Assembly: GCA_041678665.1 (NCBI GenBank) | Contig: JBAYNU010000003.1 | Coordinates: 12,008 to 76,007 of the forward strand | DNA length: 64,000 nucleotides | From: Candidatus Magasanikiibacteriota bacterium | GTDB taxonomy: Bacteria > Patescibacteriota > Patescibacteriia > Magasanikbacterales > GWA2-37-8 | Direction of reading: 5' to 3' | Shown: in pieces, positions 17,057 to 42,206 of the stretch | Layout: every line of letters begins with the position of its first letter | How positions within the stretch are numbered: the stretch's first letter is position 1 | Made by a program: the position numbers and the translations under genes | The notes under the pieces: model-generated | What the model saw: the letters and a program-made list of their open reading frames with translations, nothing else | Databases searched by the model: none | Told to the model about the DNA's origin: nothing

Positions 17057-17085
17057 TTGACATTTCTCGGCTAATAATGTATATT
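17057..17085 (+). promoter_or_regulatory. sigma70-like promoter of rplJ-rplL operon
   Basis: TTGACA - 17 nt - TATATT, followed by about 110-nt leader (candidate L10 autoregulatory leader). Confidence 0.5.
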
Positions 17086-17197
17086 AATCACATCCATAGA
17101 CAGCAGGTGCCAATTGGCTTAATTTCCTGCCGAGGTACAAAGCAATCGCATCGGTCGATTTGTGCTTATTGGTCTGTGGTAATACACAGATTTTTTT

Positions 17198-17722
17198 ATG
17201 CCAAAAAATAGACAACAAAAAGAAACTACAGTAAAAACTTTGTTAGATGGGCTCAAAGCGGGTAAATCCGCCGTGTTTGCTAATTTTCAAGGTCTCACTG
17301 TTTCACAGACCGAAGAGCTGCGTAAGAGCTGTCGCCAAGAAGGCGTAAGCGTGCTCGCCGCCAAAAAAACTTTGGTCCACCGAGTATTTGAAGAATTGGG
17401 TATCAAAGATGTTGACCCTCAGGCGTTTACTGGAGGCATTGCGACTTTTATTGGCACTGCCGATGAGGTTGCTCCGGCCAAGCTGGTAAACACTTTTGGT
17501 AAGACCCACGAAGTGGTTCAGATTTTTGGCGGACTTTTGGAAGGTAAGTATATTACCGCCGCGTCCGTAAAAAGTTTGGCCGCTTTACCAAACAAGCAAC
17601 AGTTGCTTGGTCAGTTGGTTGGCACACTCAACGCTCCGGTATCCGGATTCGTCAATGTGCTCGCCGGCAATTTACGCGGGTTGGTTGGTGTACTTAATAA
17701 TATCGCGAAAGCGAAAGTTTAA
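17198..17722 (+). CDS. rplJ: 50S ribosomal protein L10
   Basis: 174 aa with conserved L10 N-terminus; immediately upstream of L7/L12. Confidence 0.85.
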   Translation: MPKNRQQKETTVKTLLDGLKAGKSAVFANFQGLTVSQTEELRKSCRQEGVSVLAAKKTLVHRVFEELGIKDVDPQAFTGGIATFIGTADEVAPAKLVNTFGKTHEVVQIFGGLLEGKYITAASVKSLAALPNKQQLLGQLVGTLNAPVSGFVNVLAGNLRGLVGVLNNIAKAKV

Positions 17723-26650: not shown

Positions 26651-26725
26651 GCGGGTGTCGTATAATGGCTATTATGTGGCCTTCCCAAGGCTAAGACGAG
26701 GGTTCGATTCCCTTCACCCGCTCCA
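26651..26725 (+). tRNA. tRNA-Gly (anticodon CCC) with encoded CCA
   Basis: Acceptor GCGGGTG/CACCCGC, anticodon loop TTCCCAA, T-loop TTCGATT, 3' TCCA. Confidence 0.75.
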
Positions 26726-28336
26726 AGATGAAAAAACGGTCTGAAAATGACTGTTTTTTCTTTGTAATAAAGCAAAATTCACTGGTTCTGACGCGATAGA
26801 TTTAATTTCTTTGTTTTCGGTAGCTTCTTTAATTGTTAAGAACGGTTTCTTTATTTCAATGTCTAATCGATTATTTTTTAGAATAAAGTGTTGCCCCAAA
26901 GCGCGTAGCAAAATAGTCTTTTGTTCAAAATCAGCTTTCTCAAACCAGTATTTTGCATAGGTAGCAAAATTAAAAGTGCGTTCGGCCAACTCCATCCATT
27001 CATCCATTCTTTCCTCCAAATTCTTTATTACGCCCTCCAAACGAGCCCTCTCTTTCATTAAGGTGTCTTTTTGAGATATAAATAGGTCGTTAGAAATCAG
27101 TTTGCGATCCATATTTTCGGGAGAAATATATAATCTCATTAAATTGTCCAGACTGCCGACACAGGATTTATAATTCTTTTGTTGGTTTTCCAATAATACA
27201 TCACGGTCGTTTTGTTCAAGCTCGTGCTGTTCTCTTAATACCGAAACGCCCCAATGCAAGAATTCTGGCGGAATGGTTATCTTATCAATAAATGAACTCA
27301 CCTGTTCACATAAATCTTCGTGGCGAATACATTTTTGATTACAACTAACGCCTTTTTTATTTTTTGTGCAATGATGATAAATATAATGCCTTACTTTATC
27401 ATTTGTTTTGTTTTTCTTGAACTTTTCCTCGGATGTTATCATTCCGCCACATTCCCCGCATATTATAAGGCCGTTAAAAGGCAACCGTTTAATCTTAGGA
27501 CGGGATTTCCCGTCCCGCCCTAAGATTTTTTGAACCCGATCAAATTCCTCTTGGGTAATCATCGGATCGTGTCGACCTTGGTATACTTCGCCGTTAAATT
27601 CAAATAATCCAAAGTAAAATGGGTTATTAAAAATTTTACAGCCCGTGCTCATACTAATTTTCATTGGCCCCTTACCTTTACGCTGAATGCTTCTAAGCCC
27701 CCATTCATCATTTGCTATCTTTATTACCTGAGGGACTGAATAGTTGCCTGTTAGCAAATAATCCCACATTTTGCGGACTATATGAAAACGATCTGGGTCA
27801 CGAAAAATTTTCTTTTCACCTTTATCCCCGTATTTATCGTTGAGATATCCGAGCGGAGCGGTGTGCGGTCGCCAACCTTTTACAGCCTTAGCCACCATCC
27901 CTCTTTTAACATCTTTACTCAGGTCAATAATATATTGATTGGCCACACCGAACTCAACACCCATAATTAACACATTGTCCGCTGATAAATACTCACGGCC
28001 GACCGTCATAATGGATTTTATGACTCCGCGTTGTAACAACCATTGGATTAAGCCGCCGTCAATCGGGTTGCGTGATAACCTGTTTAGTTTCCAACAGATT
28101 ATTCCGTCAGCTTTGCCCGATTGGATAATATTCATCATTTCATTGAATTCTGGACGCCCGGGCTTTTTAGCCGATTTCGATTCCTCAAAGATTTTTACAA
28201 CATTGAGGCCCTTCTCATTAACCAGCTTCTTTAATTCATTTCGCTGGTCTTTGATTGATTGAATTTGTCTGTCTTCCGAGTCTGTTGACTTGCGACAGTA
28301 GATAATATATCTATTTTTATTTTCTTCTTTATTCAT
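26714..28336 (-). CDS. large serine recombinase (integrase)
   Basis: N-terminal resolvase catalytic motif Y-C-R-K-S-T-D-S-E-D-R-Q, recombinase domain, Cys-rich zinc ribbon (C-G-E-C-G ... H-H-C ... C); last 3 codons overlap tRNA-Gly 3' end. Confidence 0.8.
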   Translation of the reverse strand: MNKEENKNRYIIYCRKSTDSEDRQIQSIKDQRNELKKLVNEKGLNVVKIFEESKSAKKPGRPEFNEMMNIIQSGKADGIICWKLNRLSRNPIDGGLIQWLLQRGVIKSIMTVGREYLSADNVLIMGVEFGVANQYIIDLSKDVKRGMVAKAVKGWRPHTAPLGYLNDKYGDKGEKKIFRDPDRFHIVRKMWDYLLTGNYSVPQVIKIANDEWGLRSIQRKGKGPMKISMSTGCKIFNNPFYFGLFEFNGEVYQGRHDPMITQEEFDRVQKILGRDGKSRPKIKRLPFNGLIICGECGGMITSEEKFKKNKTNDKVRHYIYHHCTKNKKGVSCNQKCIRHEDLCEQVSSFIDKITIPPEFLHWGVSVLREQHELEQNDRDVLLENQQKNYKSCVGSLDNLMRLYISPENMDRKLISNDLFISQKDTLMKERARLEGVIKNLEERMDEWMELAERTFNFATYAKYWFEKADFEQKTILLRALGQHFILKNNRLDIEIKKPFLTIKEATENKEIKSIASEPVNFALLQRKNSHFQTVFSSWSG

Positions 28337-28456
28337 ATTGGTTTATTTTAGATTAATTACAATAATTTTGTTTGACCATTGGGAGGTCATTTGCCCTATT
28401 TTTAGCCCCTTTTATTATATCGTGTTTAACCGTAATCGTAAGCGGCTAAAAAATGG

Positions 28457-28639
28457 CTACGTGTTGGCAACTTGTTGTAGTAATTCATAGTCTTTTTTAA
28501 GCATTGATTTATAGGATATGCGCAAAGCACTAACCAAGGCCTCGCCAAGTTCGATGGCCCTTTCCTCGCCGACATTCAAACCAAATTTGGTTTGAAATAT
28601 TCTGCGGAATTCCTGAATTTTGTCAGAACTTATGCGCAT
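28457..28639 (-). CDS. hypothetical small helical protein (possible regulator/RDF)
   Basis: 60 aa between integrase and replicase; function not supported by motif. Confidence 0.3.
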   Translation of the reverse strand: MRISSDKIQEFRRIFQTKFGLNVGEERAIELGEALVSALRISYKSMLKKDYELLQQVANT

Positions 28640-28677
28640 ACGGTTAATTAATTTCGACCTTTATTTTATATTTTGCT

Positions 28678-30936
28678 TTAATAATTAATTATTTCGTCAT
28701 CGCTAAGAATGCCGACATTTTTGTTTTCGACCTTTATATCCCCAAAATCAACTGGGGAAATTCTTTCAATAATAATTTTTCTCTCCTTGTCTTTTTTGGC
28801 GTAAAATTTCAGACCGGCCTTTTCAAGATTAACAGAAATTATTTTCATCATCCGCAATAGCCGGCTCGGTGTTTGTGGCCATTGCCAATTTTTTTCAATT
28901 TTTATATTCAAATCTAATGCGACAGATTCCATTTCGGACAATAATTCTGACGGCGTATTTTCGATATAATTTGTCCGACCGTCGTTAAACATTTTCAACA
29001 ACACCAATGCGAGCGGACTTTCTTTTATGACCTCATCGTTTTGTTGTTGGAGTTTTTCGGAGTAGGCATCCAAAAATTTTTGTTTTCCGATATTTAATGC
29101 TTCGGCAATGGCGCAACCCCACTCCGCCCAGTCGGCCATCCGCGGTTTTTCTGCAAGCCTTATTTGAGGTTTGATATTAATCGCTTTCACGAGAGTATCA
29201 AAACACGCCCCGAGTATTTTGGGTTTTATGGCATTAAATTGGACTGATAACTCGGATTCTGTTTTTCTTTCCGTTTCAGAGATTCTCTCTAATTCAATAA
29301 GGAGTGAGCGGTCAAGAAGGTCGGGTTTATTTGCCACTACATTGATACCGTTAACGCCGAGGGGAATTTGAATATTATAAATAAAGTCGTCGTCATCCGA
29401 ATATAGAACGCGTTTACTGAATCCTTCTCCTGTGCACGCACGGCAAAATGCGTCACTTAGGTCATTTGACATTTTCGACAAATTATCAAACAGGCAAAGC
29501 CAGTGGTGGGAAGCTATTTGTGTAAATTCGCGGATATTCTCAATCGGGGGCAAGGTTTTGATTGCGGAAGGATCAACCAAACTTTTCATTATTCTGAACA
29601 CCGTGCTTTTGGATGACCCTTGAAGTCCTGATAAAACAATCACAGGATGAGGGAAGCCGCAAATATAGCAGGATAGAAGATAAACCAAAAAAACAATTTG
29701 ATCGTTTTCCTTTTTTAGATTAATGAATTTCAGCAATTCCTCTATATTGCCACCGCGTTCTGGGGCAACTTGCTTTTGTTGATGTCTAAATCGTTTAAAA
29801 AGTATTGGTGGATTCGATACGATTTCCCAACCGGTAGCACTAATTTTTACCGCTTGCTCACCGAGATCAAACCATAAATTATCCTCACAGTGCGCAATGC
29901 GGACATTAAGAAAAATAGGCATTTCTTTTTGGGCTTCCATTCGTAAATGGGCACAGACATTTTCAATCGTATCCTTACCTATCGTTTTGTTGTTGTTCAA
30001 ATAATACTGGCTGAATATCCAATCCTTAAATTCCCTTGAATCAATGGCAATAACTTTTGTGCCGTCGCCGTTAACCGCCGCCCAAGTCGAATTTTTATCA
30101 TCCACAAACACTTTTAACTTTGTTGTTGCCAAGAAATCAATTAATTCAACGGCCTTGCTTTGTCTGCTCTCATCACCGCCTAATTTATCAACGCCGAGTG
30201 GCTGCGGTGATGTTCTCTCTCGTTCGCAAATACTTTCAAAGACAGATCGGAGTTCGTCGTCAGCCAGCGGGGGAGTATTTTTTTGGTTCAATTTTTGTAA
30301 TCTGAACCAGACATCATTCTCCCAAAGCTGTGGAGGAAATCGTTTTAATAATTTTCCAACTATGGAGGCGGCTTGGGTATTTCTTTGGCCTTCTTTCACC
30401 CCATTATTTAATAGGCCACCAAATTCTTTATCTATTTTTCCTTCCGAATCATTACCTTGTAGACTCAAAAGTATCTCTTTGGGCAACTCGGCAATAGGAG
30501 TGGTATCTGGTGAATTTATCCATTCGTATGTTTTTGTAGAATCGATAATTGACGGCGGTGCTACTACACATCTGCCTTCTGCGCGAATATCAATATTCCG
30601 CCATTTCCTGACATCGTTTTTTATTTTTATATTAGGATTTCTGAAATAATAATGACGCCCGTTGTTTCCGGTTTTTGCCGAAACGGTCAACGGTAAATTA
30701 TCTATTCTACCGTTATCGTCGATGTCAATTACGAGTAAATCAGAAATTTGGCCGGTGATAATTATAATATTGGCTTTATTGGAATCAAACCATTGGTGCA
30801 GCTCAATATCTGTCGGTAATTTTGTTTGATACTCTTTCCACGATTTTAACAACGGCTTTTTTTCTCTATCATCACCGGGAACGACAGAAAAACCCATTGC
30901 TACATATTCTTTTGCCACTTCATATTTTGTTTTCAT
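28678..30936 (-). CDS. replication protein: primase-polymerase (prim-pol) N-terminal domain fused to P-loop SF3/D5-like helicase
   Basis: N-terminal bifunctional prim-pol-like region (V-V-P-G-D-D ... I-D-I-D motif) and Walker A G-L-Q-G-S-S-K-S-T at about aa 435. Confidence 0.65.
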   Translation of the reverse strand: MKTKYEVAKEYVAMGFSVVPGDDREKKPLLKSWKEYQTKLPTDIELHQWFDSNKANIIIITGQISDLLVIDIDDNGRIDNLPLTVSAKTGNNGRHYYFRNPNIKIKNDVRKWRNIDIRAEGRCVVAPPSIIDSTKTYEWINSPDTTPIAELPKEILLSLQGNDSEGKIDKEFGGLLNNGVKEGQRNTQAASIVGKLLKRFPPQLWENDVWFRLQKLNQKNTPPLADDELRSVFESICERERTSPQPLGVDKLGGDESRQSKAVELIDFLATTKLKVFVDDKNSTWAAVNGDGTKVIAIDSREFKDWIFSQYYLNNNKTIGKDTIENVCAHLRMEAQKEMPIFLNVRIAHCEDNLWFDLGEQAVKISATGWEIVSNPPILFKRFRHQQKQVAPERGGNIEELLKFINLKKENDQIVFLVYLLSCYICGFPHPVIVLSGLQGSSKSTVFRIMKSLVDPSAIKTLPPIENIREFTQIASHHWLCLFDNLSKMSNDLSDAFCRACTGEGFSKRVLYSDDDDFIYNIQIPLGVNGINVVANKPDLLDRSLLIELERISETERKTESELSVQFNAIKPKILGACFDTLVKAINIKPQIRLAEKPRMADWAEWGCAIAEALNIGKQKFLDAYSEKLQQQNDEVIKESPLALVLLKMFNDGRTNYIENTPSELLSEMESVALDLNIKIEKNWQWPQTPSRLLRMMKIISVNLEKAGLKFYAKKDKERKIIIERISPVDFGDIKVENKNVGILSDDEIINY

Positions 30937-30955
30937 ATTATTTTTTGATTATTTT

Positions 30956-31198
30956 TTATTGGTAGATAAGATTTTTTAATTCTTTGAGTGCGTAGTAAAA
31001 ATTTGTTGGCTCAACACAGACTTGGCGATTGCGGTATTTTTCGATTAAGTCGTTTAGTTTGGCGTCCGCTTCCGTGTAGAATATTGCCCGACCGCCGACC
31101 TTGCGACTAATGTTGATTGACCGTCCCTGTGTATATAGGTAGGCCATTAGGGGTAAGTCAGTTGTCTCAAAGTTTTTGTTTTGTTTCTCAGTATTCAT
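30956..31198 (-). CDS. small hypothetical protein (DUF5659-like pattern)
   Basis: 80 aa; family assignment tentative. Confidence 0.3.
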   Translation of the reverse strand: MNTEKQNKNFETTDLPLMAYLYTQGRSINISRKVGGRAIFYTEADAKLNDLIEKYRNRQVCVEPTNFYYALKELKNLIYQ

Positions 31199-31282
31199 AT
31201 TTGTTAATTTTTATTTTATTTAAGTCTGTAATTAGTGTAATAAAAATTAGACCAACTTATAATTAATCGCGGCTATCTCTTA

Positions 31283-31318
31283 AAAATTAAAAAAACGGCT
31301 TTGTTTAGCCGTTTCTTT
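31283..31318 (-). terminator. hairpin terminator downstream of 31345-32016 gene
   Basis: AAACGGCT-aaacaa-AGCCGTTT followed by T-run on minus strand. Confidence 0.5.
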
Positions 31319-31344
31319 ATGAAGTTACTAACATTGGCCAAAGG

Positions 31345-32016
31345 TTAACCAGAGGTTTCGGTTATATATTCAACATTATAATGTTTATTTATTCTAAAAC
31401 CGCTTGTTCTGCTCTCAACAATAAAATCCTCGGTGTTATCTACTTTTTCTCTAAAATTTTTATTAATTTTCTTAATAGCATTTGATGTAATAATATCTTT
31501 ATTTTTTTCGCTTTTTTGTTTTTGTGTTTTTTTACCGTCCAATTCGTTATATTCTTTGATTTTTTCAATAATGTCTCTAATTCGTAGGGGTTTTGAAGAA
31601 AGAACCAGCGAGCGAACTAGTTGGAATCTATCGCCGCTTACATTATAAATTTTTGTTTCATCGTCTTTTTTATATATACCATTAATATTCGACAATACGA
31701 CGTCGATTATGTCTGGGCTTACTGAGATAAATTGTTTTTTATTATCACCAGTTTCAGTTGACGAATAATAATTTTGAAAATTTTTTCCTTTACCCACCAA
31801 GACATATCTATTCCAATTACTGGGGGCAAAATCGATGACATTAATAATTTTTCTATTATGTAAACTCCGTAAAATTTTGAAGTATAATTTCAGACTAAAT
31901 CCGTCAGGGCAAACATTGTTGGCGTCTAAAATAATTGAATCTTTCCGCTCGGATTCAATGTTTAGTTTTATGTGTTTGATTATATTGTTTTCAACCAAAT
32001 CAATGTCTGTATTCAT
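31345..32016 (-). CDS. hypothetical protein
   Basis: 223 aa, Lys-rich, no motif recognised. Confidence 0.4.
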   Translation of the reverse strand: MNTDIDLVENNIIKHIKLNIESERKDSIILDANNVCPDGFSLKLYFKILRSLHNRKIINVIDFAPSNWNRYVLVGKGKNFQNYYSSTETGDNKKQFISVSPDIIDVVLSNINGIYKKDDETKIYNVSGDRFQLVRSLVLSSKPLRIRDIIEKIKEYNELDGKKTQKQKSEKNKDIITSNAIKKINKNFREKVDNTEDFIVESRTSGFRINKHYNVEYITETSG

Positions 32017-32061
32017 ATTAGTTTCATTTTATATGTATTTTAAGCCATTATCGGCCCGAGG

Positions 32062-32736
32062 TCAACCCTTTGTATCCCCGTATGTGGGGTAATACTTTTC
32101 ACCGTTTTCCATAGTGACCCCGCCGTCCGCGTTTATCATCTCCTGCATTGCTTCGTGTATTTTGTTAAATTGGTCAGGAAATCTTTTCGCAAGTTCCCCC
32201 AAATTGTTTGGATTATCCGGATTGGTCGCGTCTTCATAAGCCCTCAATTGGTCTCCCTGTCCGCCAGCCATTATCTCCTCAATTTTAATAGTGGTTTTGC
32301 TTTTGCTAAGATTCCAACCCTGAATGTCGGCAAAATTTGTTTGCATTCTCTGAAATTTTTCCAAGGCAATCATTTTTTCAAACGGACGCCAATTTTTTGC
32401 CTTATTTTTCTCCGCGATGTGCATAGCCGCTTGCTCAATTACATCTTCCATTTGAGCAATATATACTTCACGCAATCTTTCAAAGTGGTCGCGGCGTTCC
32501 CACTTGTTTGATACCCGATTTTGCCGATAATATTCGGCGATGTCCCTTTCCAATGTTCTGAGGGTAATTTGTCCCCAATGTTTTGCGGAATTTAACCTGT
32601 TAATCTCGGCCAAAATAGATCGCATAGACAGGCCCGCGACTTTAAGGGAAATTTCCATTTCCCTGCGTTCTTCCAGCAAATTCATTGGCACGGGGTTTCT
32701 ACCCGCGTTGGTGGGGGGTAGCGACATTTCCGACAT
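32062..32736 (-). CDS. hypothetical protein
   Basis: 224 aa helical protein; no motif recognised. Confidence 0.4.
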   Translation of the reverse strand: MSEMSLPPTNAGRNPVPMNLLEERREMEISLKVAGLSMRSILAEINRLNSAKHWGQITLRTLERDIAEYYRQNRVSNKWERRDHFERLREVYIAQMEDVIEQAAMHIAEKNKAKNWRPFEKMIALEKFQRMQTNFADIQGWNLSKSKTTIKIEEIMAGGQGDQLRAYEDATNPDNPNNLGELAKRFPDQFNKIHEAMQEMINADGGVTMENGEKYYPTYGDTKG

Positions 32737-32759
32737 AAAATTACTTTATAAAATACATT

Positions 32760-33731
32760 TTAGGTATTGGCTAAAATTTCTTTTTTAATATGTTCGGCCA
32801 GTGCCCTCATAAAAGGCGGCATTACCGCGTTGCCGATTCTGGCCCATTGCTCTTTGTGGGTGCCGAGAAACTGAAAGTCGTCGGGAAAACCGGCCAACCG
32901 TTTCAACTCCTGAATGGTCAAATATCTGTTTTCAACCCAATGAAAAAGGCAAGCGGTTTTTGTAATGGTCGGGCACGGTTTATGCCTTGCTATTCGTTGG
33001 CAATTAAAATATTTACCGTTGTTATACTTTGCGCCGGTTTCACCCTCTCTACATTTCAACAAAACTTTTTTAATGGTAGTTATTCCGGGTATCTCTCTCG
33101 GTTCGGTAATAATTAAATTTTGTAGCGCCTCTTGAACGGTGATTATTTTGCCAGTCGGTTGAGGAAATGAGGGGATAACATTAAAATCTTTTCTGACGCC
33201 AATCCAAATTAACCTGCGGCGCGATTGTGGCACGCCGTAATTGGCGGTGTTCATCAATTGGCATTTAACATTATAATTCAGGGATTTTAGCCCGGTCATT
33301 ATCTCAATAAATCGTCCGCGCATTTTACCCTTAACCATTCCCGAAACATTTTCCATTAAAAAAACTTTGGGCTGTAATCCGTCAACCAATCGCACAAATT
33401 CCTTGAATAAATTATTGCGCGGATCGTTAACCTGTCTTTTGCCGGCAGTAGAAAAACCCTGACAAGGTGGTGAGCCGTCAAAAACATCTAATTCGCCGCG
33501 TTTGATTTGGCAGAATGACAATATCTCGTCGGTGCTAACGGCGGCAATATTCTTTTGCCATACGGGCACATCGGGAAAATTGCTTTTGAATGTTTGAACC
33601 GAGTTAGATTCCCATTCAATCGCCAGTAATTCCTTAAATTCGGCCATTCGGTATCCCAATGAGCTGCCGCCGCACCCGCTGAATGTAGAAATTACCGTCG
33701 GTGCCGTCGTTGTTGTCGGTAATGTGTTCAT
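32760..33731 (-). CDS. DNA (cytosine-5)-methyltransferase
   Basis: Motif I F-S-G-C-G-G, motif IV G-S-P-P-C-Q-G-F-S, motif VI E-N-V; start taken at internal ATG 33731 abutting upstream stop (ORF-track start 33788 would overlap 56 nt). Confidence 0.8.
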   Translation of the reverse strand: MNTLPTTTTAPTVISTFSGCGGSSLGYRMAEFKELLAIEWESNSVQTFKSNFPDVPVWQKNIAAVSTDEILSFCQIKRGELDVFDGSPPCQGFSTAGKRQVNDPRNNLFKEFVRLVDGLQPKVFLMENVSGMVKGKMRGRFIEIMTGLKSLNYNVKCQLMNTANYGVPQSRRRLIWIGVRKDFNVIPSFPQPTGKIITVQEALQNLIITEPREIPGITTIKKVLLKCREGETGAKYNNGKYFNCQRIARHKPCPTITKTACLFHWVENRYLTIQELKRLAGFPDDFQFLGTHKEQWARIGNAVMPPFMRALAEHIKKEILANT

Positions 33732-33732
33732 A

Positions 33733-34395
33733 TTAATTGAACTTGTAGCCGCACTTCGGGCAAGTGTGCTCGGTCTCAATATTTTCACTAAATTCTGGCT
33801 GCTCTAACTGCGACGGATTGGGAATATAGTCATCGGTTAAGACGGTATCGACGACACCGACATTATTTTTTTGTAATGAGCACCTGTCCAAGATATTGGC
33901 CGTTAATAATTGGCGCAAGTTATTGCCATTCTGAATAAAGTCGGTCAAAAATTCCTTGTTAAAACCCGTGCCCTCTAATTTTGCAAGTTCGCTTTCCTTT
34001 TCGGCCAATTCTCTCAATATTAGGCCCAATTTGTCAATTTCCCAGCCGCCGCTGATGTTATTTGCCGCTAAATTAGCCAATTTTTCGCGTTCTGGGGGCC
34101 ATTCTACCTCACGGTATGCAAATCTATTGCCTTTGGCCTCAATGTAGCCACCGGCGAGAGATTTGGAGTCCGTGGCTTGTTCAAATAGGTCCGTTATGAC
34201 GACTTCTGCGTCCGGGGCTATTTCAAGCAACCATTTGACCCTTTGATGGCCGCCGATCAAGTTGCCGGTGGCGCGGTTGAAAATTATGCCGCTTAAATCG
34301 CCCAGATCCGCTAAACTGGTTTTAAGCAAAGAAAAACTGGAATCTGAAATTTGGCGGGGATTCCAATCGGCGAGGTGTAAATCTTTTACTTTCAT
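33733..34395 (-). CDS. ParB-like nuclease (ParBc/sulfiredoxin-fold) domain protein with C-terminal zinc ribbon
   Basis: N-terminal D-L-H-L-A-D-W-N-P-R-Q-I-S ... G-G-H-Q-R ParB N-domain pattern; C-terminal C-P-K-C-G. Confidence 0.55.
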   Translation of the reverse strand: MKVKDLHLADWNPRQISDSSFSLLKTSLADLGDLSGIIFNRATGNLIGGHQRVKWLLEIAPDAEVVITDLFEQATDSKSLAGGYIEAKGNRFAYREVEWPPEREKLANLAANNISGGWEIDKLGLILRELAEKESELAKLEGTGFNKEFLTDFIQNGNNLRQLLTANILDRCSLQKNNVGVVDTVLTDDYIPNPSQLEQPEFSENIETEHTCPKCGYKFN

Positions 34396-34419
34396 AGAAT
34401 TGATAAATTAATAATAAAT

Positions 34420-34896
34420 TTAGTAGTTAGTTAGACACAAATTACCTACCGAAATTTTGTTTTCAAATAATGACCATTCGATCTCGCCCCAATCCTTAAT
34501 TGGTTTATTTAGATCAAGAATAACGACGGCCAATCTTTCTAAATTTTCATCCCAATTAACATATTTGGTTGGAAAGATTGATTTGCCAACGACAGTCGTC
34601 CCTTTCCAATATGTAAAATTTGTTTCAGAATTAGTATTTTCATAGAGGCGATTGCGGGGTATGTTAATTTGTAAATCGCCACCCTCCAACCCGATCCTTT
34701 GTCTGGTCATTTGGTTTGCGTAAGTATTACCGGTTTTTGTGTTTATAATTATGTGGTCATAATCTACAAAATCCGGCAAAACTTTTGTGTAATAAGACCT
34801 TATTTTGTCTCTAACGCGTTTGAGTTGGATATTAACACGGCCAAATTCATTGGCAATTTGTTTATATTCCCGTCTTGTTTGTGCTTCGTTAGGCAT
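34420..34896 (-). CDS. hypothetical protein
   Basis: 158 aa, no motif recognised. Confidence 0.35.
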   Translation of the reverse strand: MPNEAQTRREYKQIANEFGRVNIQLKRVRDKIRSYYTKVLPDFVDYDHIIINTKTGNTYANQMTRQRIGLEGGDLQINIPRNRLYENTNSETNFTYWKGTTVVGKSIFPTKYVNWDENLERLAVVILDLNKPIKDWGEIEWSLFENKISVGNLCLTNY

Positions 34897-35099
34897 ATTG
34901 TGATTAAATACTTAATAAAAAAAGGGTTCGGGCAAAATGTGTAGCCCGCCAAAATGATAATATTCATTTTGGATTGGACTTTACACATCTCGCCTGAACC
35001 CTTTGGGATCAAGCGTGTGTTGTTTGTTTCAACACACGAGAGTGTTTAGTTGTGATTGTATTATAATCTATGGGGCGGGTGAGTGTCAATATGTCGAAA

Positions 35100-36002
35100 T
35101 TAATTATAAGAATTAATGATACCGTCATCGGCACCATAAAAACACATCGGTGTATAACCAGACCAACACCATTGCCACGATCTCCCAGTTCCGTAGTTAG
35201 AAGGATTAGCCGAGCTCGGATTTCCTCGCTCCGATTTTAACATATCCAAACTCATACCAATCCAAATTTCATTATTTGCCAAGCGGTCGCAGGTTGAATG
35301 TCCCCACTCTGGGTGTTTGTTGCATATACGCCCCGCCCTTGAATTATCCCATTCGGCATCCTCTCTACCGATTTTTGCTGATTCTATGTCATCTTTCTGT
35401 TTCTGATTGGTATATTCTTTGTTTGTCATTAACGCGTCGCTCTCTATCCAAGCCACTATTTTCGTGTTGTCTCTATTGGTAGTTTTTATAAGCGATTTGT
35501 TATTGACTGTATCTTCCTCATACACATCCGCTTTAACTCCCGAATCAACAAAATATTCATCGGCATATTCTTTATTTTCGTAATTAGCTAAATCAAATTC
35601 AGAATAAGTATTATCCGGTCCTATCGGATTAATGAATTTATTATTAATGATACTATAAATCACCATTTCTTTTATAGGTTGTTTGCCATTGATGTATTCG
35701 GTAGTAAATTTTATTTTAGAAGCTATATCCGCCTGTCTTTTCGCAATGGATTGCTTTTGAGATTGCTCTTGTTGCGATTGTAGAAATGTAGTTGATATTA
35801 TGCCGATAAACATCATCGTGATCGTTAGCCAAACTAATATGCCAAGTGGTGATTTAAGAGAAAACCACATTTTAAAAGGATTGCTTTTTTCTTTTATTTT
35901 ATTCACCACTGGTTTGGGTGGAATCTGACTTTTACAATGCTTGCAAATAATAGCGTCTGATAAGACTTCTTCGGCGCAGAATGGGCATTTTATGTTTGAC
36001 AT
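35100..36002 (-). CDS. zinc-ribbon/TM-anchored hypothetical protein
   Basis: N-terminal C-P-F-C ... C-K-H-C zinc ribbon, one TM helix, Trp/Cys-rich C-terminal domain. Confidence 0.4.
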   Translation of the reverse strand: MSNIKCPFCAEEVLSDAIICKHCKSQIPPKPVVNKIKEKSNPFKMWFSLKSPLGILVWLTITMMFIGIISTTFLQSQQEQSQKQSIAKRQADIASKIKFTTEYINGKQPIKEMVIYSIINNKFINPIGPDNTYSEFDLANYENKEYADEYFVDSGVKADVYEEDTVNNKSLIKTTNRDNTKIVAWIESDALMTNKEYTNQKQKDDIESAKIGREDAEWDNSRAGRICNKHPEWGHSTCDRLANNEIWIGMSLDMLKSERGNPSSANPSNYGTGRSWQWCWSGYTPMCFYGADDGIINSYN

Positions 36003-36300
36003 AAAAATAAATTAAAAATAAAAATGGACACCCAAGACCTGCGAACTACAAAGGTGTCCCGAGAGACGCCGTTTGTGTTTGGTCTGGGTGCCCATTCCAA
36101 TACACAAACGACAAAGCGGTTAAGCTTTTTGCTTCTCTCGGTAATAATATCTTGTAGTTCGCAGGGTTATTATAGGCCAAACGGGGTAAAAAGTAAATAG
36201 GGGTAAATATAAAATGAATTTTATATTGTTAAAAATGCTAATTATAGGCAAAAATTCAATATTTTTAAATAGGATTGTCAATGTTGTTAACAGTCGGCAG

Positions 36301-36329
36301 TTGACATAGTTTGGGTTATCGGCTATACT
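36301..36329 (+). promoter_or_regulatory. consensus sigma70 promoter with overlapping short inverted repeat
   Basis: TTGACA - 17 nt - TATACT; TGTCA ... GTTAAC ... TGACA arrangement 36276-36306. Confidence 0.55.
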
Positions 36330-36371
36330 GATATAAATAGTTTCATTATTTATATCAAATTCACATAACTT

Positions 36372-36599
36372 ATGTCAGAAATAAAAGAAGAAAACAGATC
36401 AGCTCGCTTTAAGCGAGTTGCGGAACGCAGAACAAAAGCGGTTTTGCGGTCTATTCGAATTTTGGGTAATTGTTCAAATAAAAGCGCCTATCAATACTCG
36501 GACGAAGAAATAGCCAAAATTTTTAAGGCTATTGAAGATCAAATACGTTTAACCAAGGCTCGATTTCAAAAATCGAAAAATATTAAATTTACCCTATAA
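36372..36599 (+). CDS. hypothetical small protein (operon gene 1)
   Basis: 75 aa, basic/helical. Confidence 0.4.
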   Translation: MSEIKEENRSARFKRVAERRTKAVLRSIRILGNCSNKSAYQYSDEEIAKIFKAIEDQIRLTKARFQKSKNIKFTL

Positions 36600-36602
36600 T
36601 TT

Positions 36603-37220
36603 ATGACAAATAATTTAGCAGGCCTGTCGCGAGCAGAAAAAATTATACTTGTGATGTATAAGATGAGTGAGGGGACAAAAAAAAATTTGAAATACGAGGA
36701 CATTGTGGTCGGTGCATTTAAGATGTTTGCCGAAAATTTTCATTTGAGAGGATACTCTGAATATCCCGATTCTGGGGACTTAGTTCATAAACCACTGTAT
36801 GATTTTAGAAAAAAAGGATTAATAGAAGCTAATAATAAAGTTTTTTCCTTAACCGATCGCGGAATATCCTTTGCAGAACAAGTTGAAATACAAGCAAGCG
36901 GGAAACAAGTTGGTTACAGCGGAAGGTTGTCCAGATTCACGGAAAAGGAAGTGGCGCGTATTGAGACGACGGAAGGATTCCAACTTTTCGTTGATGGCAA
37001 AACAGATAAAATTACGGACACCGATTTTTTTAACTACATTGGGGTAACTCCGCGCACATCAAAAAATGATTTCCTCGGGCGTTTTGATACGGTATGTAGT
37101 GCCGTTGAAGAATTAAATAATCAAAAAAATTTACCATTTATTCGCGAAAAAATTGATCCCTACCATAAATTTATGCTTGAAAAATTTCAAAGTATAATAT
37201 CACATTATCAAACTAAATAA
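36603..37220 (+). CDS. hypothetical protein (operon gene 2), possible N-terminal winged helix
   Basis: 205 aa; 3-nt gap from gene 1. Confidence 0.4.
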   Translation: MTNNLAGLSRAEKIILVMYKMSEGTKKNLKYEDIVVGAFKMFAENFHLRGYSEYPDSGDLVHKPLYDFRKKGLIEANNKVFSLTDRGISFAEQVEIQASGKQVGYSGRLSRFTEKEVARIETTEGFQLFVDGKTDKITDTDFFNYIGVTPRTSKNDFLGRFDTVCSAVEELNNQKNLPFIREKIDPYHKFMLEKFQSIISHYQTK

Positions 37221-37232
37221 CTTCCCTTTACT

Positions 37233-39335
37233 ATGAAAATGAATATGAAACAAAAAAATATTACCATTATTGAAGAACCAAACGTGATAGATGACCATTT
37301 ATTAGATATTATCGGCAACGAATTTAAGTTCGACCACGAAAAAGGAATTGCAGAGTGGATAAAAAATTCAAAAGACGCATATACAAGGTCCGACTTGCCG
37401 GATTCAGAACAAAACATAATATTACGCTTTGTAGACGGAAAACAAGACGACGCTGCTTTTGAATGTATTGATTTTGTTGGTATGAGTGATACGGATATTG
37501 ATAAAGCATTTAAGAGATGGGGTGACCCGGAAGCTGCAAAACGTGGTTTGAAAAAGAGAGTATATGGCGGTCACGGAAATGGCGGAAAATTTTATATGCG
37601 CCAGATGTTTGAGAAATCTCATTTTGTAACCTATAAAGACGGCAAGATCAACATTTTTGGTTTTAATGAAAACCGTAAATACGGTTTCGCTGACGGTTTT
37701 AAGAATAAGAAAGCCAACCCCAAAGAAGCATTTTCTATTGCTAATATCGAAGACTTAAATTTTCCCAAGGGAGTCAAAGAACAGATTGTGGAAGGTAAGA
37801 TTGGTTTTACCGTGGTTAGAGGAATCGGTCCGTCAAAAATGAAAAATAATATTAAATTTGATAAGTTGGTTGAAAAATTAAAAAATCATCCGCAGGCGCG
37901 TCGCATATTAATTCGAATTAGTGTATGGGCCAGCCACAATAATTTTTCTGACGCTACACTTCTTAAACCCGACGACATTAAACCGCTTCCAAATTTTGAA
38001 AAGCCGTATTTTGTTGAAATACCGTCGGTTATTGAGATAATTGAAAGCGGAGAGAAAAATTCGGTAGAAATGGCAAATGCAAAATATCAAGTTGGAAATT
38101 TGGTGTTAAAAACTTCCGAAGAGGCATTCGGTAAGGGCAGCCGGGTAGCCGATCTGAACAGGGTTGATATAATAGGTGAGGTAGGAGTTATAGCTTCATA
38201 TCAATTTTTTGAATTGGGGGTGACCGCATTCCCGCAAGCTTCATTTATTTATGGTGAATGTGAGTGTCCGATATTGGAAGATTCTGAAATGGACGCCGTA
38301 AAGAACGATCGCTCAAAACTTGTAGAAAATAATGTGCGTGCGGTTGCTCTCTTGGGTTGGTTGAGGGAGCAAGTTGATAAATACGCAAACTCAATTGCCG
38401 CATTGGAGAAAAAAGAACAAGAGGTTCAACGAAGACAAATATCGGCTGCTTATAATGATTTTTTGAATAAATGGAAAGATAGGTTTATGTCCAAATTTAT
38501 GGGAGATTTATTCAAAAGCGGCGGTGGTGCTGGCGGCGGAAATAACGATGAGGGAGGGGTTAAGAGAAAAATATTAGAATTACCCAAGGATGGTTTTGCT
38601 TTTAGTTATCCCTATGCTGAAATACAAAATAGCCTTGAAGAGAGGATCACGTTAAAAGCGTCCGTCCCTAATCCAATTCCGCTCGGAAGTATTATAAAAA
38701 TAGAGGCGTCTTCAAATAATATCATCGTTAGTGAACAAAAAATTACAATAAAAGCGGAAAATATAAAAACAACGCCGTCCGGAGACACGGTTGCAGTTAT
38801 AAACTTTATTGTTATTGGTAAAAAAGTTGGAGAAGAGGCGCAACTTATCGCTACCGTCGGTAAATTAAGCACCGAAATGACCGTTAAAACCATTGAAGCT
38901 ACGGGGAAAGATAAAGGTAAGAACCCTAAAACTCCGCAAGTTTTGCTCTCGGGAATACACCCGGATCCATTAATGATAAATCCCGGGGAACAATCGGTTA
39001 TATTGTCCGAACGTGATCCGTTAGTTTACCAACGGTATCAGGATGTGCAAGAAGGGATTTATTGGATCAATACGCAAAGTCCTTTGGCCAAGGCGATACT
39101 TGATAGATATACTGATAATTCAATAAGATGGCGGGATTATCTTTTTCAAAGATATGTTGACATTTTTGTCAAACAAATGCTGCACGAATTGCAAAAAAGA
39201 GATTCGGAAAATTTTCGAGCAGATAGGGTCGACAGCGAACTGGATGAATTAACAAGAAAAGTCCATTTTGCGGCCATTAACGACCTCAACCAATTTTTCT
39301 TTGAGGAAGACTTTACGCCGGTCGAAAAATTATGA
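37233..39335 (+). CDS. GHKL-type (histidine kinase/HSP90/MORC-like) ATPase domain protein
   Basis: N-box E-W-I-K-N-S-K-D-A, G1 I-D-F-V-G-M-S, G2 G-G-H-G-N-G-G-K within first 130 aa; 700 aa total; remainder unassigned. Confidence 0.55.
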   Translation: MKMNMKQKNITIIEEPNVIDDHLLDIIGNEFKFDHEKGIAEWIKNSKDAYTRSDLPDSEQNIILRFVDGKQDDAAFECIDFVGMSDTDIDKAFKRWGDPEAAKRGLKKRVYGGHGNGGKFYMRQMFEKSHFVTYKDGKINIFGFNENRKYGFADGFKNKKANPKEAFSIANIEDLNFPKGVKEQIVEGKIGFTVVRGIGPSKMKNNIKFDKLVEKLKNHPQARRILIRISVWASHNNFSDATLLKPDDIKPLPNFEKPYFVEIPSVIEIIESGEKNSVEMANAKYQVGNLVLKTSEEAFGKGSRVADLNRVDIIGEVGVIASYQFFELGVTAFPQASFIYGECECPILEDSEMDAVKNDRSKLVENNVRAVALLGWLREQVDKYANSIAALEKKEQEVQRRQISAAYNDFLNKWKDRFMSKFMGDLFKSGGGAGGGNNDEGGVKRKILELPKDGFAFSYPYAEIQNSLEERITLKASVPNPIPLGSIIKIEASSNNIIVSEQKITIKAENIKTTPSGDTVAVINFIVIGKKVGEEAQLIATVGKLSTEMTVKTIEATGKDKGKNPKTPQVLLSGIHPDPLMINPGEQSVILSERDPLVYQRYQDVQEGIYWINTQSPLAKAILDRYTDNSIRWRDYLFQRYVDIFVKQMLHELQKRDSENFRADRVDSELDELTRKVHFAAINDLNQFFFEEDFTPVEKL

Positions 39336-40423
39336 ATTTTGAAGGAAACATAATAAACATCGTCTGTGAAAATTACGGGGTTAACAAAGAGGCCGTTTTT
39401 GCACAGGACAGGCAACAAAACATTGCGGAAGTCAGGATGGTTCTTGCCTATTGTTTAAGGTTGGTTGAAAATTTATCTTTTCCGGCAATAGGAAAAATTA
39501 TCGGTAATAGGGATCACACCACGATGATGCACTCTTGTAGTAGGATTGCCAAAAAAATTGAACAAGACAAAAAATTTGCCGTCAGAATCAAATTAATTAT
39601 CGATAAGATTTTGGCTAATAGATATAATGAGGTAGCCAAACCAAAAGTTAATCCGATAGAAATTAATATTGGTGAAGATGAAGAAGAGTCAGAACCAGAA
39701 CCAGATTTGAATTATTATGTGGTGCCTTATGAAAATGAAAAGTTAGAATTATCAGATAGAGAAAGGGGTATTTTAATACGATATCGAAACGGCGAAACTC
39801 TGAGAAAAATAGGTCAAACGGAAAAAGTCACGACACAGCGTATTAGCCAAATAATCATCAAAGCGGTTACCAAGGAAGTTAAAGCAAAAATAAGGGAGGG
39901 ATTTGATATTGATATTGAAGAATCTATAAAAGGCGAAAAAATTGCTCATAATTTTAATTTATCTAAAAAAATATCTGACGAAGATGTTAGAAAACTTACC
40001 CCGGAATTTATATTAAGAGTTGGCAGCGGCACCCAAATAAAAGCCTTGGCAAAAGAAGTCGGACTGTCGGTATCAAAATTTAATAAATTCTTCCCCGAAG
40101 TGTTAGAAGAAGCCGATAATAAAAAAAGACGAGAAAAACAACGATGGACAAAATATTATATTAGTTGTAGGGGGTGCGGAACCACCAAAATACCACACGT
40201 AAAAAAAGGGTATTGTGAGCAATGCCTTGGTGTTTTTCGCGGGAAGAGAAGAGATTCGGTATTGAAGAATAAAAATAAATGCGAAGTATGTAGTATTGAA
40301 CGCGGGAAAGCGATACAAAAGTATAAGAAAGATTTCTATATTACTAAGGACGGACGGGTATTGTGTCGCAATTGTTTTTTACAATTAACCGGCGATAAGC
40401 TTGCGTCAAGCAGGTGGAAATAA
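39332..40423 (+). CDS. DnaA C-terminal (domain IV)-like DNA-binding protein with sigma-70 region-4-like HTH and C-terminal zinc ribbons
   Basis: N-terminal matches DnaA domain IV (L-x-x-x-S-F-P-A-I-G-K-I-I-G-N-R-D-H-T-T-M-M-H-S-C-S-R-I); E-T-L-R-K-I-G-Q-T-E-K-V-T-T-Q-R-I-S-Q-I HTH; C-R-G-C-G ... C-E-Q-C ... C-E-V-C ... C-R-N-C; start overlaps upstream stop (ATGA). Confidence 0.55.
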   Translation: MNFEGNIINIVCENYGVNKEAVFAQDRQQNIAEVRMVLAYCLRLVENLSFPAIGKIIGNRDHTTMMHSCSRIAKKIEQDKKFAVRIKLIIDKILANRYNEVAKPKVNPIEINIGEDEEESEPEPDLNYYVVPYENEKLELSDRERGILIRYRNGETLRKIGQTEKVTTQRISQIIIKAVTKEVKAKIREGFDIDIEESIKGEKIAHNFNLSKKISDEDVRKLTPEFILRVGSGTQIKALAKEVGLSVSKFNKFFPEVLEEADNKKRREKQRWTKYYISCRGCGTTKIPHVKKGYCEQCLGVFRGKRRDSVLKNKNKCEVCSIERGKAIQKYKKDFYITKDGRVLCRNCFLQLTGDKLASSRWK

Positions 40424-40434
40424 ATCGAAATAAA

Positions 40435-41394: not shown

Positions 41395-41442
41395 AAAACC
41401 TGTTGAACAGTTTGATTATATCATAGATTGTAATTTTAGTAT

Positions 41443-42066: not shown

Positions 42067-42206
42067 TATTCGTTGGGGTTCTAACCGGTTTTTTCCAACA
42101 GGCCAAATAACCAAATAACAACATAAAAGGCCCGAAATTGATTTTCAGGCCTTTTACCCAAATAACCCCTGCGGGGTCAAACAAATATTATTAACTAAAC
42201 GGTAAA

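Follow-up and report, generated by a model that had tools for sequence, protein, structure and literature searches.

Phage serine integrases such as those of A118/LI, phiC31, Bxb1, TP901-1 and SPbeta share a domain order of resolvase-type catalytic domain, recombinase domain and zinc ribbon with coiled coil, and they act on short att sites with a minimal common core. For the A118-type (LI) integrase, the published rule places the zinc-ribbon motif of attP 5 bp more distant from the centre than that of attB (PMC3783163). By the working rule of the field, tyrosine integrases use tRNA genes as targets, and protein-coding genes are what serine integrases interrupt (PMC4383910, PMC5704250); serine integrases have been reported not to use tRNA genes. 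Among the tyrosine integrases, Mx8 IntP and those of the fusellovirus SSV carry attP within the integrase gene, and when Mx8 integrates into a tRNA gene region, the resulting gene is changed both at its 3' end and in its properties (PMC6070905, PMC4383910). Islander-type islands pair a tyrosine integrase gene beside an intact tRNA with a displaced tRNA fragment, are sporadically distributed and carry defense and DNA-modification cargo. The Ccr proteins of SCCmec are large serine recombinases whose insertion point is the very 3' end of a conserved housekeeping gene (rlmH/orfX), which is not inactivated; that target is protein-coding, and the recombinase genes sit within the element, clear of the att site. 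We found no description of serine integrases targeting tRNA genes in the searchable literature, whose coverage is incomplete, so that absence is not proven.

Here we analyzed a stretch of 64,000 nucleotides (the window) from a Candidatus Magasanikiibacteriota bacterium, in which two recombinase genes, LSR1 and LSR2, each run into the 3' end of a convergent tRNA gene. The tRNA genes were located by ARAGORN and Rfam, which place the start of tRNA-Gln at 52450 or 52451. LSR2 lies within an ORF spanning 50882-52462, with 51014 as its probable start.

26651 to 26725, plus strand: tRNA-Gly(CCC), intact, predicted left arm of the attB used by element E1; its CCA (26723-26725) is encoded only when the site is occupied.
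26714 to 28336, minus strand: LSR1, large serine recombinase of 540 aa in the integrated state, its last 4 codons and stop antisense to tRNA-Gly.
51014 to 52462, plus strand: LSR2, large serine recombinase of 482 aa in the integrated state and 493 aa as predicted from attP, ending R-D-stop antisense to the tRNA.
52450 to 52521, minus strand: tRNA-Gln(CUG), predicted attB arm of element E2.

By domain and motif criteria both proteins are large serine recombinases, and catalysis of attP x attB recombination is predicted for them. In each, a Resolvase domain (PF00239; E 3e-20 for LSR1 and 1.3e-20 for LSR2) is followed by a Recombinase domain (PF07508) and a zinc ribbon (PF13408, Zn_ribbon_recom), the order of the phage enzymes. 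In an alignment of 20 sequences the Y-x-R-x-S nucleophile motif (Y13/R15/S17) is invariant, as are the zinc-ribbon cysteines C293, C296, C323 and C332. The coiled coil was seen at residues 330-411 in an AF2 model of the homologue P0229, not of LSR1, as helices 330-377 and 384-411 after the ribbon strands (mean pLDDT 84.8). The nearest solved structure is the C-terminal domain of an A118-type integrase (E about 1e-7), and phage and plasmid recombinases in the collections reach at most about 25-28% identity, with none closer. LSR1 and LSR2 themselves share 28% identity along their whole length (E 1e-68). A recombination directionality factor was not recognized, and a sigma-70-like promoter was not found for LSR2 or in the region S2 described below.

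The sequence-only reading had proposed that LSR1 overlaps tRNA-Gly and that the same geometry recurs at the second gene, and both overlaps are present. The last codons of LSR1, TCT TGG AGC GGG TGA, are the reverse complement of 26714-26728, giving an overlap of 12 nt (26714-26725); in the resulting S-W-S-G-stop, W pairs with CCA, S-G with the 3' strand of the acceptor and the stop with positions 65-67. LSR2 ends TTG TTC CGA GAC TAG, so that F-R-D-stop is antisense to tRNA-Gln(CUG) over 12-13 nt. The arrangement is not due to chance, because among 80 homologous loci of other genomes at least 59 have a complete convergent tRNA into which the recombinase ORF extends. We consider it probable, at roughly 85%, that both overlaps represent attL, the junction on the tRNA side of an integrated element that a large serine recombinase has moved. 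The first of these elements, E1, was delimited as follows.

26720 to 26723: tRNA-side core GCTC of E1, at about tRNA positions 71-74, with the predicted crossover dinucleotide inside it.
26724 to 26762, plus strand: P' arm of E1, inside the last ~13 codons of LSR1, with a 13/14-bp hairpin at 26728-26762 and a T-run, oriented as a terminator of tRNA-Gly.
26724 to 42291: element E1, 15.6 kb, bounded by the GCTC core repeats.
42264 to 42291, plus strand: far junction (attR) of E1, consisting of the P arm GGTTCTAACGCGCTTCACAAAGCA and the core GCTC; host DNA begins at 42292.
42195 to 42287, minus strand: 30-aa C-terminal extension of LSR1 in the attP state, CFVKRVRTEIEQYNGLVYYIPKLTESQFTV, with its stop codon; the predicted protein has 569 aa.
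Predicted attP junction of E1: CACAAAGCAGCTC joined to CAAGATGAAAAAAC.
Predicted empty site A of E1: TTCACCCGCTC joined to ATTGTAAGAGACC.

Between these junctions E1 encodes LSR1, a 60-aa ORF, a PrimPol/PriCT primase, a DUF5659 protein, a ParB-like protein, two C5 DNA methylases, a 700-aa HATPase-like protein, a DnaA_C-HTH protein and an EndoIII-like protein, and it contains a 130-nt hairpin. In other assemblies E1 stands, identical base for base, beside a different tRNA-Gly gene. One contig (L084) matches window positions 26716-38336 with zero mismatches; its BLAST alignment shows 3 mismatches, all in the tRNA portion (26700-26715), and its copy of E1 adjoins tRNA-Gly(TCC), tRNA-Gly(GCC) and a sigma-70 gene. 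At the far end, one contig (L087) is identical to 30435-42292 and another (L089) matches 38698-42292 with one mismatch, each then diverging into another flank. The junctions read CACCC GCTC CAAGATG and AAGCA GCTC followed by ATTGTAA or ACGGCAC. The comparison with empty sites that had been called for also gave a vacant locus: in a relative (L092), PpiC is followed by an identical tRNA-Gly(CCC) and, 52 nt on, by tRNA-Thr, and the site reads GCTC directly followed by AAG, without CCA. Since the same DNA lies in two different tRNA-Gly genes and the site of a relative is vacant, E1 is mobile, and the recombinase-tRNA overlap is not the fixed, syntenic arrangement that would have counted against the sequence-only reading. 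We considered the spacer after tRNA-Gly in this relative as a scar of the E1 P' arm and rejected it (local alignment score 14 against a shuffle mean of 13.6); FtsE and FtsX look-ups for contigs with the empty site gave no useful result.

The second element, E2, was delimited at both ends as well, as the earlier claim of two independent recombinase elements had it.

47008 to 47056: host 23-bp perfect hairpin, which in the predicted empty site would stand directly after tRNA-Gln as a terminator in common with the convergent DUF6938 gene.
47050 to 52453: element E2, 5.4 kb.
47050 to 47162, plus strand: far junction of E2, core TTGTTC (47050-47055) and a 107-bp P arm, called A.
47197 to 50690, minus strand: cargo of E2, namely a HEPN protein, a type II restriction enzyme (DUF6996/6997), an N4/N6 methylase, a PDC-S18 candidate defense protein (DUF5655) and an XRE-type HTH protein.
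50777 to 50960: S2, a whole attP in inverted orientation, placed between the HTH gene and the start codon of LSR2; the predicted circle junction of E2 has the same sequence.
52448 to 52453: tRNA-side core TTGTTC of E2, reverse complement GAACAA, at about tRNA positions 71-76.
Predicted empty site of E2: GTCTCGGAACAA joined to ATTAAAATCACCACC.

On the sequence evidence, E1 and E2 are very probably mobile islands inserted at the last bases of tRNA genes by serine integrases. Like Islander-type islands they have an integrase gene beside an intact tRNA, a sporadic distribution and defense and DNA-modification cargo; unlike them, they have a serine recombinase and no displaced tRNA fragment. As with SCCmec, a large serine recombinase targets the very 3' end of a gene and does not inactivate it. 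They differ from the elements of phage serine integrases in having the 3' end of a tRNA gene as target in place of a protein-coding gene, and in carrying attP within the recombinase ORF.

The att sites are short. Direct repeats of 4-6 bp, GCTC in E1 and GAACAA in E2, bound the two elements from about tRNA position 71 (acceptor end, discriminator and CCA position), and the corresponding cores in three further elements are GAACA (L094), GAGC (L096) and a 10-bp core (L097). To the left of the core, GTTCGA stands 12 nt away in the tRNA and GTTC(G/T)A 17 nt away in the P arm; in E2 the P arm reads, in tRNA sense, GGTTCGT at 17 nt. The T-loop-like motif is displaced by +5 bp in the P arm relative to the tRNA in 5 of 5 resolved elements, including L097, where the spacings are 16 and 11 nt. 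This exact shift agrees with the attP/attB rule known for serine integrases. Candidate far junctions could also be recognized by the pattern GTTC[GTA][ATG]-N17-core in 16 of 59 loci (13 of them GTTCTAA[C/T]), against 5 matches in an opposite-strand control. The right half-sites (B') are unrelated AT-rich trailers in which a symmetric motif is not visible. In contrast to the sites of phage serine integrases, it is the tRNA T-loop that supplies the conserved motif here, with visible conservation in only one of the attB half-sites.

We propose that the left attB half-site is the conserved T-loop/T-stem (GGTTCGA), recognized by the zinc-ribbon domain, and that the same motif, exactly 5 bp further from the crossover in the far-end arm of attP, is how the enzyme would tell attP from attB. 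The element would insert just past the tRNA body, leaving the tRNA functional and supplying it with a new CCA and trailer, to which E1 and most LSR1-type elements would add a terminator. On excision, the recombinase would acquire a different, partly conserved C-terminal tail.

Up to the junction, the recombinase ORF contains no stop codon, which places attP inside the 3' end of the gene; integration therefore exchanges the last codons, and as these and the stop then come from the tRNA antisense strand, the length of the tail varies with the tRNA. Reconstruction of attP gives 569 instead of 540 aa for LSR1 and 493 instead of 482 aa for LSR2. As in Mx8 and SSV, attP lies in the integrase ORF and integration alters the 3' end of a gene; those systems differ in their tyrosine chemistry and longer segments of identity, while here a serine recombinase exchanges ~2-30 C-terminal residues. 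Proteins with attP-state tails are present in the database (P0002, P0081, P0177, P0180, P0185, P0229), and homologues in attP form without a tRNA were found at L025, L034, L057 and the IMG/VR contig L090.

Do the exchanged residues matter to the protein? There is in our view an even chance that they do not, the overlap being a neutral by-product of where attP lies, at the 3' end of the gene. Three observations suit neutrality. Tails in the integrated state, which are between 1 and about 60 residues long, simply stop where the tRNA antisense strand first offers a stop codon; the VRT of the attP-state tails is constant in the nucleotide sequence itself, as GTT AGA ACY, a mimic of the T-loop; and AF2 models the attP-state tail with low confidence (pLDDT 37-57). 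Against it, the attP-state tails of eight proteins (LSR1-type and P0229 of the LSR2 clade) share (Y)[IV]Y-I-P-x-L-S ~20-25 residues past the junction, and the codon alignment of six of them shows synonymous variation (ATT/ATA, CCA/CCG/CCT, TCN/AGC), which points to selection on the peptide.

A more speculative idea, which we hold to be possible though rather doubtful, is that the location of attP in the recombinase gene acts as a state sensor, the difference in tails biasing the direction of the reaction or expression, without or besides a separate directionality factor. An excised element would make the full-length recombinase with the conserved tail x-V-x-x-V-R-T ... Y-I-Y-I-P-D-L-S, and an integrated one a tail-less protein that finishes in whatever residues the antisense strand of the tRNA happens to encode. 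In some elements, E2 among them, the integrated gene would also face convergent transcription from the tRNA, which the tRNA-strand terminator hairpin of E1 and most LSR1-type elements would limit; E2 has no terminator hairpin at the corresponding position. This integration-dependent C-terminus at least raises a regulatory idea that can be tested.

S2 bears on the same question. In it, A is present in inverted form (113 bp at 100% identity), together with the core and with the final 77 bp of LSR2, likewise inverted (76/77 identical), and the three E2 sites with a common core are exact attL/attP/attR combinations. The architecture is kept in four genomes (E2, L094, L096 and L097), in all of which the LSR2-type gene is convergent with the tRNA; the internal attP copy is 97-100% identical to the end copies within a genome and only about 80% between genomes. 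An assembly artefact was rejected, since the three other genomes were assembled independently. In the E2 clade, the internal inverted attP could let an integrated element regain the full-length form by inversion of a recombinase cassette, or it could give rise to a circle in which two attP sites are equivalent. No evidence for an inverted LSR2 cassette came from close LSR2 homologues in the database, all of which have tRNA-type tails.

The sequence-only reading also held that the element rebuilds the tRNA 3' end. In the classical sense it does not. The cores, near positions 71-76, are too short at 4-6 bp to rebuild the tRNA body, and only CCA and trailer derive from the element, plus the terminator hairpin in E1 and most LSR1-type relatives. 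A classical tRNA-rebuilding island, as formed by tyrosine integrases, would cross over in the T-loop or anticodon loop, its attP bringing the tRNA 3' half and displacing the original as a far direct repeat. Three loci (L006, L035, L054) do have 17-24 nt copies of the tRNA 3' end 7.8-8.5 kb away, a finding outside the predictions of our model. However, a P-arm-type junction precedes these fragments by 100-200 nt, and we assume them to be older scars. Within the window, no copy of the tRNA 3' end was found for either element, even with 6-7 mismatches allowed; the two contexts of E1 agree on the tRNA side only in ACCCGCTCCA, attL and attR of E1 share 4 bp, and in both elements identity is confined to positions 71-76. 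We regard this alternative as very improbable for E1 and E2. Weaker still, and hardly credible, is a fixed, domesticated and non-mobile recombinase gene merely syntenic with the tRNA: long direct repeats are not seen in most family loci and JGI metagenome contigs yielded no attP junction of E1, yet the same 15.6 kb, mismatch-free outside the tRNA portion, occupies two tRNA-Gly genes, the relative's site is empty, cargo varies among close relatives of E2, and attP-form homologues lack the tRNA.

The reading as serine-integrase islands at tRNA 3' ends extends to a large, undescribed family that does the opposite of the working rule, concentrated in uncultivated bacteria with small genomes, whose mobile elements are poorly known. 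Island finders keyed to displaced tRNA fragments or tyrosine integrases will miss elements of the E1/E2 type, and the 4-6 bp cores together with the signature GTTCTAAC-N15-core provide a way to delimit them. The T-loop as zinc-ribbon motif with its +5 bp shift would be a clean natural confirmation of the structural model of attP/attB discrimination. The enzymes may also interest genome engineering as recombinases with ready-made targets in tRNA genes: because the motif they appear to recognize is the near-universal T-loop, they might, if this is true, have natural integration targets among the tRNA genes of nearly every organism.

The tRNAs at the 59 overlapped loci are of ten types (Gly 16, Asn 13, His 8, Trp 7, Gln 5, Ser 5, Asp 2, Ile 1, Glu 1 and Leu 1). 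Among 240 database homologues, the C-terminal peptide is an antisense translation of the tRNA acceptor or T-loop in 180, with a T-loop antisense signature in 87 tails and a tRNA-Gly acceptor antisense end in 93. The family, of roughly 10,000 members, has thousands in Patescibacteria, and other members are named from Nitrospira, Brocadia, Thermodesulfovibrionales and Saganbacteria; IMG/VR contains just one relative. The proposal of a lineage-specific strategy is thus half right: the tRNA 3'-end geometry is heritable within the recombinase family, but it is not the property of one narrow host lineage.

A single short DNA segment of E1 and most LSR1-type elements would act at once as protein tail, att half-site and tRNA terminator. 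We scanned the 59 loci, fetched as LSR1 relatives, for a terminator on the tRNA strand. A permissive scan was positive as often in controls as in targets. With the strict scan, a hairpin and T-run were present within the last ~13 codons in 35 of the 59 loci and in 3 of 590 control segments, and the mean MFE of the region was -16.9 kcal/mol compared to -8.2 kcal/mol in controls (p 1e-24).

The two large serine recombinase genes LSR1 and LSR2 each run, at their 3' end, into the 3' end of a convergent tRNA gene, as the sequence-only reading had described for LSR1 and tRNA-Gly and had seen recur at LSR2 and tRNA-Gln(CUG):

26651-26725, + strand: tRNA-Gly(CCC) (ARAGORN and Rfam)
26714-28336, - strand: LSR1 ORF, 540 aa, with Resolvase, Recombinase and Zn_ribbon_recom domains
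50882-52462, + strand: LSR2 ORF, probable start 51014 (482 aa), with Resolvase, Recombinase and Zn_ribbon_recom domains
52450/1-52521, - strand: tRNA-Gln(CUG) (ARAGORN and Rfam)

Read directly, the last codons of LSR1 (TCT TGG AGC GGG TGA) are the acceptor 3' strand, discriminator and CCA of tRNA-Gly in reverse complement, and the tRNA-Gln acceptor end carries the LSR2 terminal codons TTG TTC CGA GAC TAG. Aligned over their full length, as had been proposed, the two recombinases are 28% identical. An identical database protein, P0121, is listed under Candidatus Magasanikbacteria (Patescibacteria), and the window comes from ENA contig ERZ27247350 k141_946094. The window also contains an 85-nt tRNA with a long variable arm (7853-7937; Rfam tRNA score 49 bits), whose anticodon loop ARAGORN could not assign ('tRNA-???'), and a ribosomal protein L10 leader (17076-17205; Rfam RF00557, 72.5 bits), an ordinary host feature.

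The exact LSR1 protein is also present on contig L084 (ENA ERZ27249449 k141_857685), which matches window 38336-26716 with 0 mismatches and, beyond this, has tRNA-Gly(TCC), tRNA-Gly(GCC) and a sigma-70 gene where the window has tRNA-Gly(CCC) and PpiC. At the other end, the Logan contig L087 shows full identity with the window as far as 42292 and then diverges, and the JGI contig L089 matches 38698-42292 with one mismatch before diverging. Since L084 on the tRNA side and L087 and L089 on the far side leave the window sequence, the same 15.6-kb block, element E1 (26724-42291), occupies two genomic contexts, each backed by independent assemblies. The tRNA-side junction reads CACCC GCTC CAAGATG, and the far-side junctions AAGCA GCTC ATTGTAA (context A) or AAGCA GCTC ACGGCAC (context B); the sole identity between the ends is GCTC, at 26720-26723 and 42288-42291, corresponding to about tRNA positions 71-74 (tRNA numbering is approximate throughout). 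In a related genome (L092), PpiC is followed by an identical tRNA-Gly(CCC) ending in GCTC, directly joined to AAG, with tRNA-Thr(CGT) 52 nt on. By its sequence, this is the empty E1 site with the flanking genes of the window, so the comparison suggested earlier did uncover an empty allele, and the overlap is not a fixed arrangement.

With a PrimPol/PriCT primase, a ParB-like protein, two C5 methylases and other genes, E1 looks like an integrative plasmid-like element. Between divergent genes it contains a 130-nt branched hairpin (36038-36166; MFE -67 kcal/mol, z -8.6 on either strand) that had no match in Rfam and could be the element's replication origin or a non-coding RNA. The stretch 42367-42581, outside the element, has tRNA-Thr(CGT) and, 139 nt downstream of it, an 81%-identical copy of its last 27 nt; L092 has a similar second acceptor-like end past its tRNA-Thr. 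The copy could be a scar left by an earlier integration, or else a structured RNA.

The second element, E2 (47050-52453; 5.4 kb), lies at tRNA-Gln and carries, besides LSR2, a type II restriction-modification pair, a PDC-S18 candidate defence gene, a HEPN protein and an HTH regulator. BLAST and repeat searches revealed a perfect 113-bp inverted repeat (47050-47162 versus 50777-50889) and a 77-bp inverted repeat (50884-50960 versus 52377-52453) that share 6 bp. Around the 6-bp core TTGTTC, E2 has three sites that are exact combinations of four arms, arm A being the far-end P arm:

Far end: host arm / core / arm A
tRNA end: LSR2 3' end / core / tRNA
Internal site S2, inverted: LSR2 3' end / core / arm A, a complete attP

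The predicted empty site reads tRNA-Gln...CTCG GAACAA, directly followed by a 22-23-bp hairpin and the convergent DUF6938 gene, with the hairpin in between making a sensible terminator arrangement. In an independent assembly (sample SRR6484787), Logan contigs end exactly at 26725, 26699 and 52448, which indicates a heterogeneous population with several variants at the junctions, empty sites not being thereby demonstrated.

Database searches returned 2420 homologues of LSR1 (E<=1e-20) and more than 7700 of LSR2 (E<=1e-30). Among the 240 best homologues, 93 terminate in x-S-[GREK], which is tRNA-Gly acceptor sequence read antisense, and 87 have (D/E)(S/L)N(P/Q/R) soon after a W, the antisense of CCA, acceptor stem and T-loop. 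When one genome per species was scanned, the ORF extended over a complete convergent tRNA in 59 of 80 loci, by 10-189 nt; the targets were tRNA-Gly (16), Asn (13), His (8), Trp (7), Gln (5), Ser (5), Asp (2), and Ile, Glu and Leu (1 each). Most of the other 21 had a contig ending at or inside the tRNA, a tRNA 3' fragment only, or an ORF continuing into non-tRNA sequence. The overlap is thus a family trait and not a chance event. In L016, L038, L040, L041, L045 and L053 the T-arm and acceptor stand at the recombinase 3' end with no 5' part, preceded in L040, L041 and L053 by the common sequence GATATAGTCCAC..., suggesting that the insertions went into displaced tRNA fragments or into tRNAs that something else had interrupted.

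In E1, E2 and three relatives of E2, namely L094 (tRNA-Gln), L096 and L097 (both tRNA-Asn), a core of 4-10 bp starts at about tRNA position 71. Without exception, the tRNA has its T-loop motif GTTCGA at a distance of 12 nt from the core, and the far-end arm has GTTC(G/T)A at 17 nt (11 and 16 nt in L097), a shift of exactly 5 bp. In the A118-type (LI) integrase the attB zinc-ribbon motif is 5 bp nearer the centre than in attP (Rutherford et al., PMC3783163). Searching the tRNA-sense strand beyond each recombinase gene for GTTC[GTA][ATG]-N17-core, with the locus's own core, gave candidates in 16 of 59 loci versus 5 control-strand hits; 13 of the 16 have GTTCTAA[C/T], as in E1, at distances of 5.9-10.6 kb from genes for tRNA-Gly, Asn, Trp or His. 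We infer that the zinc-ribbon domain reads the tRNA T-loop and that these candidates are attR junctions. The right-hand half-sites showed nothing comparable to the T-loop motif, which leaves a gap in this reading. In L006, L035 and L054, 17-24 nt of the tRNA 3' part recur 100-200 nt past the candidate far junction, a copy for which a crossover at 71-74 does not account.

On the tRNA strand, the P' arm of E1, the element sequence at the tRNA side, contains a 13/14-bp hairpin that starts about 4-5 nt past CCA and leads into a T-run (26728-26762). Such a hairpin and T-run were found in 35 of 59 family loci versus 3 of 590 control segments from within the same genes, and the 62 nt past the tRNA fold at a mean of -16.9 versus -8.2 kcal/mol in controls (p 1e-24); the conserved C-terminal peptide (e.g. 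K-T-E-A-L-T-S-V) is this hairpin translated in frame. The element would therefore replace the trailer and terminator of the tRNA and leave its body alone, and the earlier idea that it rebuilds the tRNA 3' end did not hold in the classical sense, the ends of E1 sharing only GCTC. E2 has no hairpin at this position, its nearest tRNA-strand terminator-like site being about 125 nt downstream.

Because no stop codon precedes the junction, attP lies inside the recombinase ORF. From the reconstructed attP, LSR1 would have 569 aa with the tail CFVKRVRTEIEQYNGLVYYIPKLTESQFTV (540 aa when integrated), and LSR2 493 aa with the tail TTFEKIRTDFTEN (482 aa when integrated). The form x-[LIV]-V-x-x-[VI]-R-T recurs in the reconstructed tails of the 13 other loci, and attP-form tails occur in database proteins P0002, P0036, P0081, P0108, P0177, P0180/P0183, P0185 and P0229, in the tRNA-less loci L025, L034 and L057, and on the IMG/VR contig L090. 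The V-R-T codons are always GTT AGA ACY, except in L034 (GTT CGC ACC), and V-R-T is the T-loop mimic translated in frame, nothing more. A second motif, (Y)[IV]Y-I-P-x-L-S, 20-25 residues beyond the junction, varies synonymously, including TCN/AGC serine codons, which suggests selection on the peptide and hence that the excised state may make the complete recombinase. The AF2 model of P0229 has the standard LSR fold with coiled coil, its attP-form tail being of low confidence. The LSR2-clade recombinase P0235 (559 aa) has an XRE-type HTH domain joined in frame to its C-terminus and may represent attP-state read-through into an adjacent regulator gene. Known integrase genes spanning attP are those of Mx8 and SSV, both tyrosine integrases (PMC6070905, PMC4383910).

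A layout like S2 is also present in L094, L096 and L097, where an inverted copy of the far-end arm (100-114 bp) leads through the core into one of the terminal 77-79 bp of the recombinase gene, some 55 nt ahead of its start codon; it was absent from all 80 LSR1-type loci. The inverted attP copies, conserved in four independent genomes, are:

Window: 50777-50960
L094: 6341-6526
L096: 9774-9946
L097: 9767-9949

Cargo and even target tRNA vary among these loci. Inverted and end copies are 97-100% identical within a genome versus about 80% between genomes, and so evolve in concert. S2 could provide a circle with two equivalent attP sites, act as an operator for autoregulation or give an mRNA with complementary 5' and 3' parts; no promoter was predicted in the S2 region. 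S2 might also let the recombinase cassette invert and so regain its full-length tail, but the inverted form was seen in none of the four loci, nor among close database homologues. Window 50705-50998 holds more short inverted LSR2 pieces (50727-50753 matches 52349-52375; 50755-50774 matches 51154-51173), with counterparts in L094, L096 and L097, and a 22-nt perfect inverted repeat (50705-50726 / 50977-50998) brackets this intergenic region.

Comparison with known structures, with phage and plasmid recombinases and with the literature places LSR1 and LSR2 among the large serine recombinases: the solved structure closest to them is the C-terminal domain of the A118-type integrase (E about 1e-7), and the nearest phage or plasmid recombinases are about 25-28% identical. 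According to the review of integrative and mobilizable elements, serine recombinases integrate within protein genes (PMC5704250), and the large LSR survey of Durrant et al. does not mention tRNA. Within an incomplete coverage of the literature, tRNA 3'-end targeting, the presumed T-loop recognition and an attP inside the ORF would be new features of E1 and E2, all conclusions on these elements and their recombinases being based on sequence comparison. In one of the nearest phage and plasmid recombinases, a distant relative with 27% identity from an unverified human-faecal 'Bacteriophage sp.' scaffold (L098, MT836653.1, 7586-9156), the recombinase ORF also runs antisense into a tRNA, tRNA-Glu(TTC), in another reading frame, so that tRNA 3'-end targeting may reach beyond the LSR1/LSR2 family.
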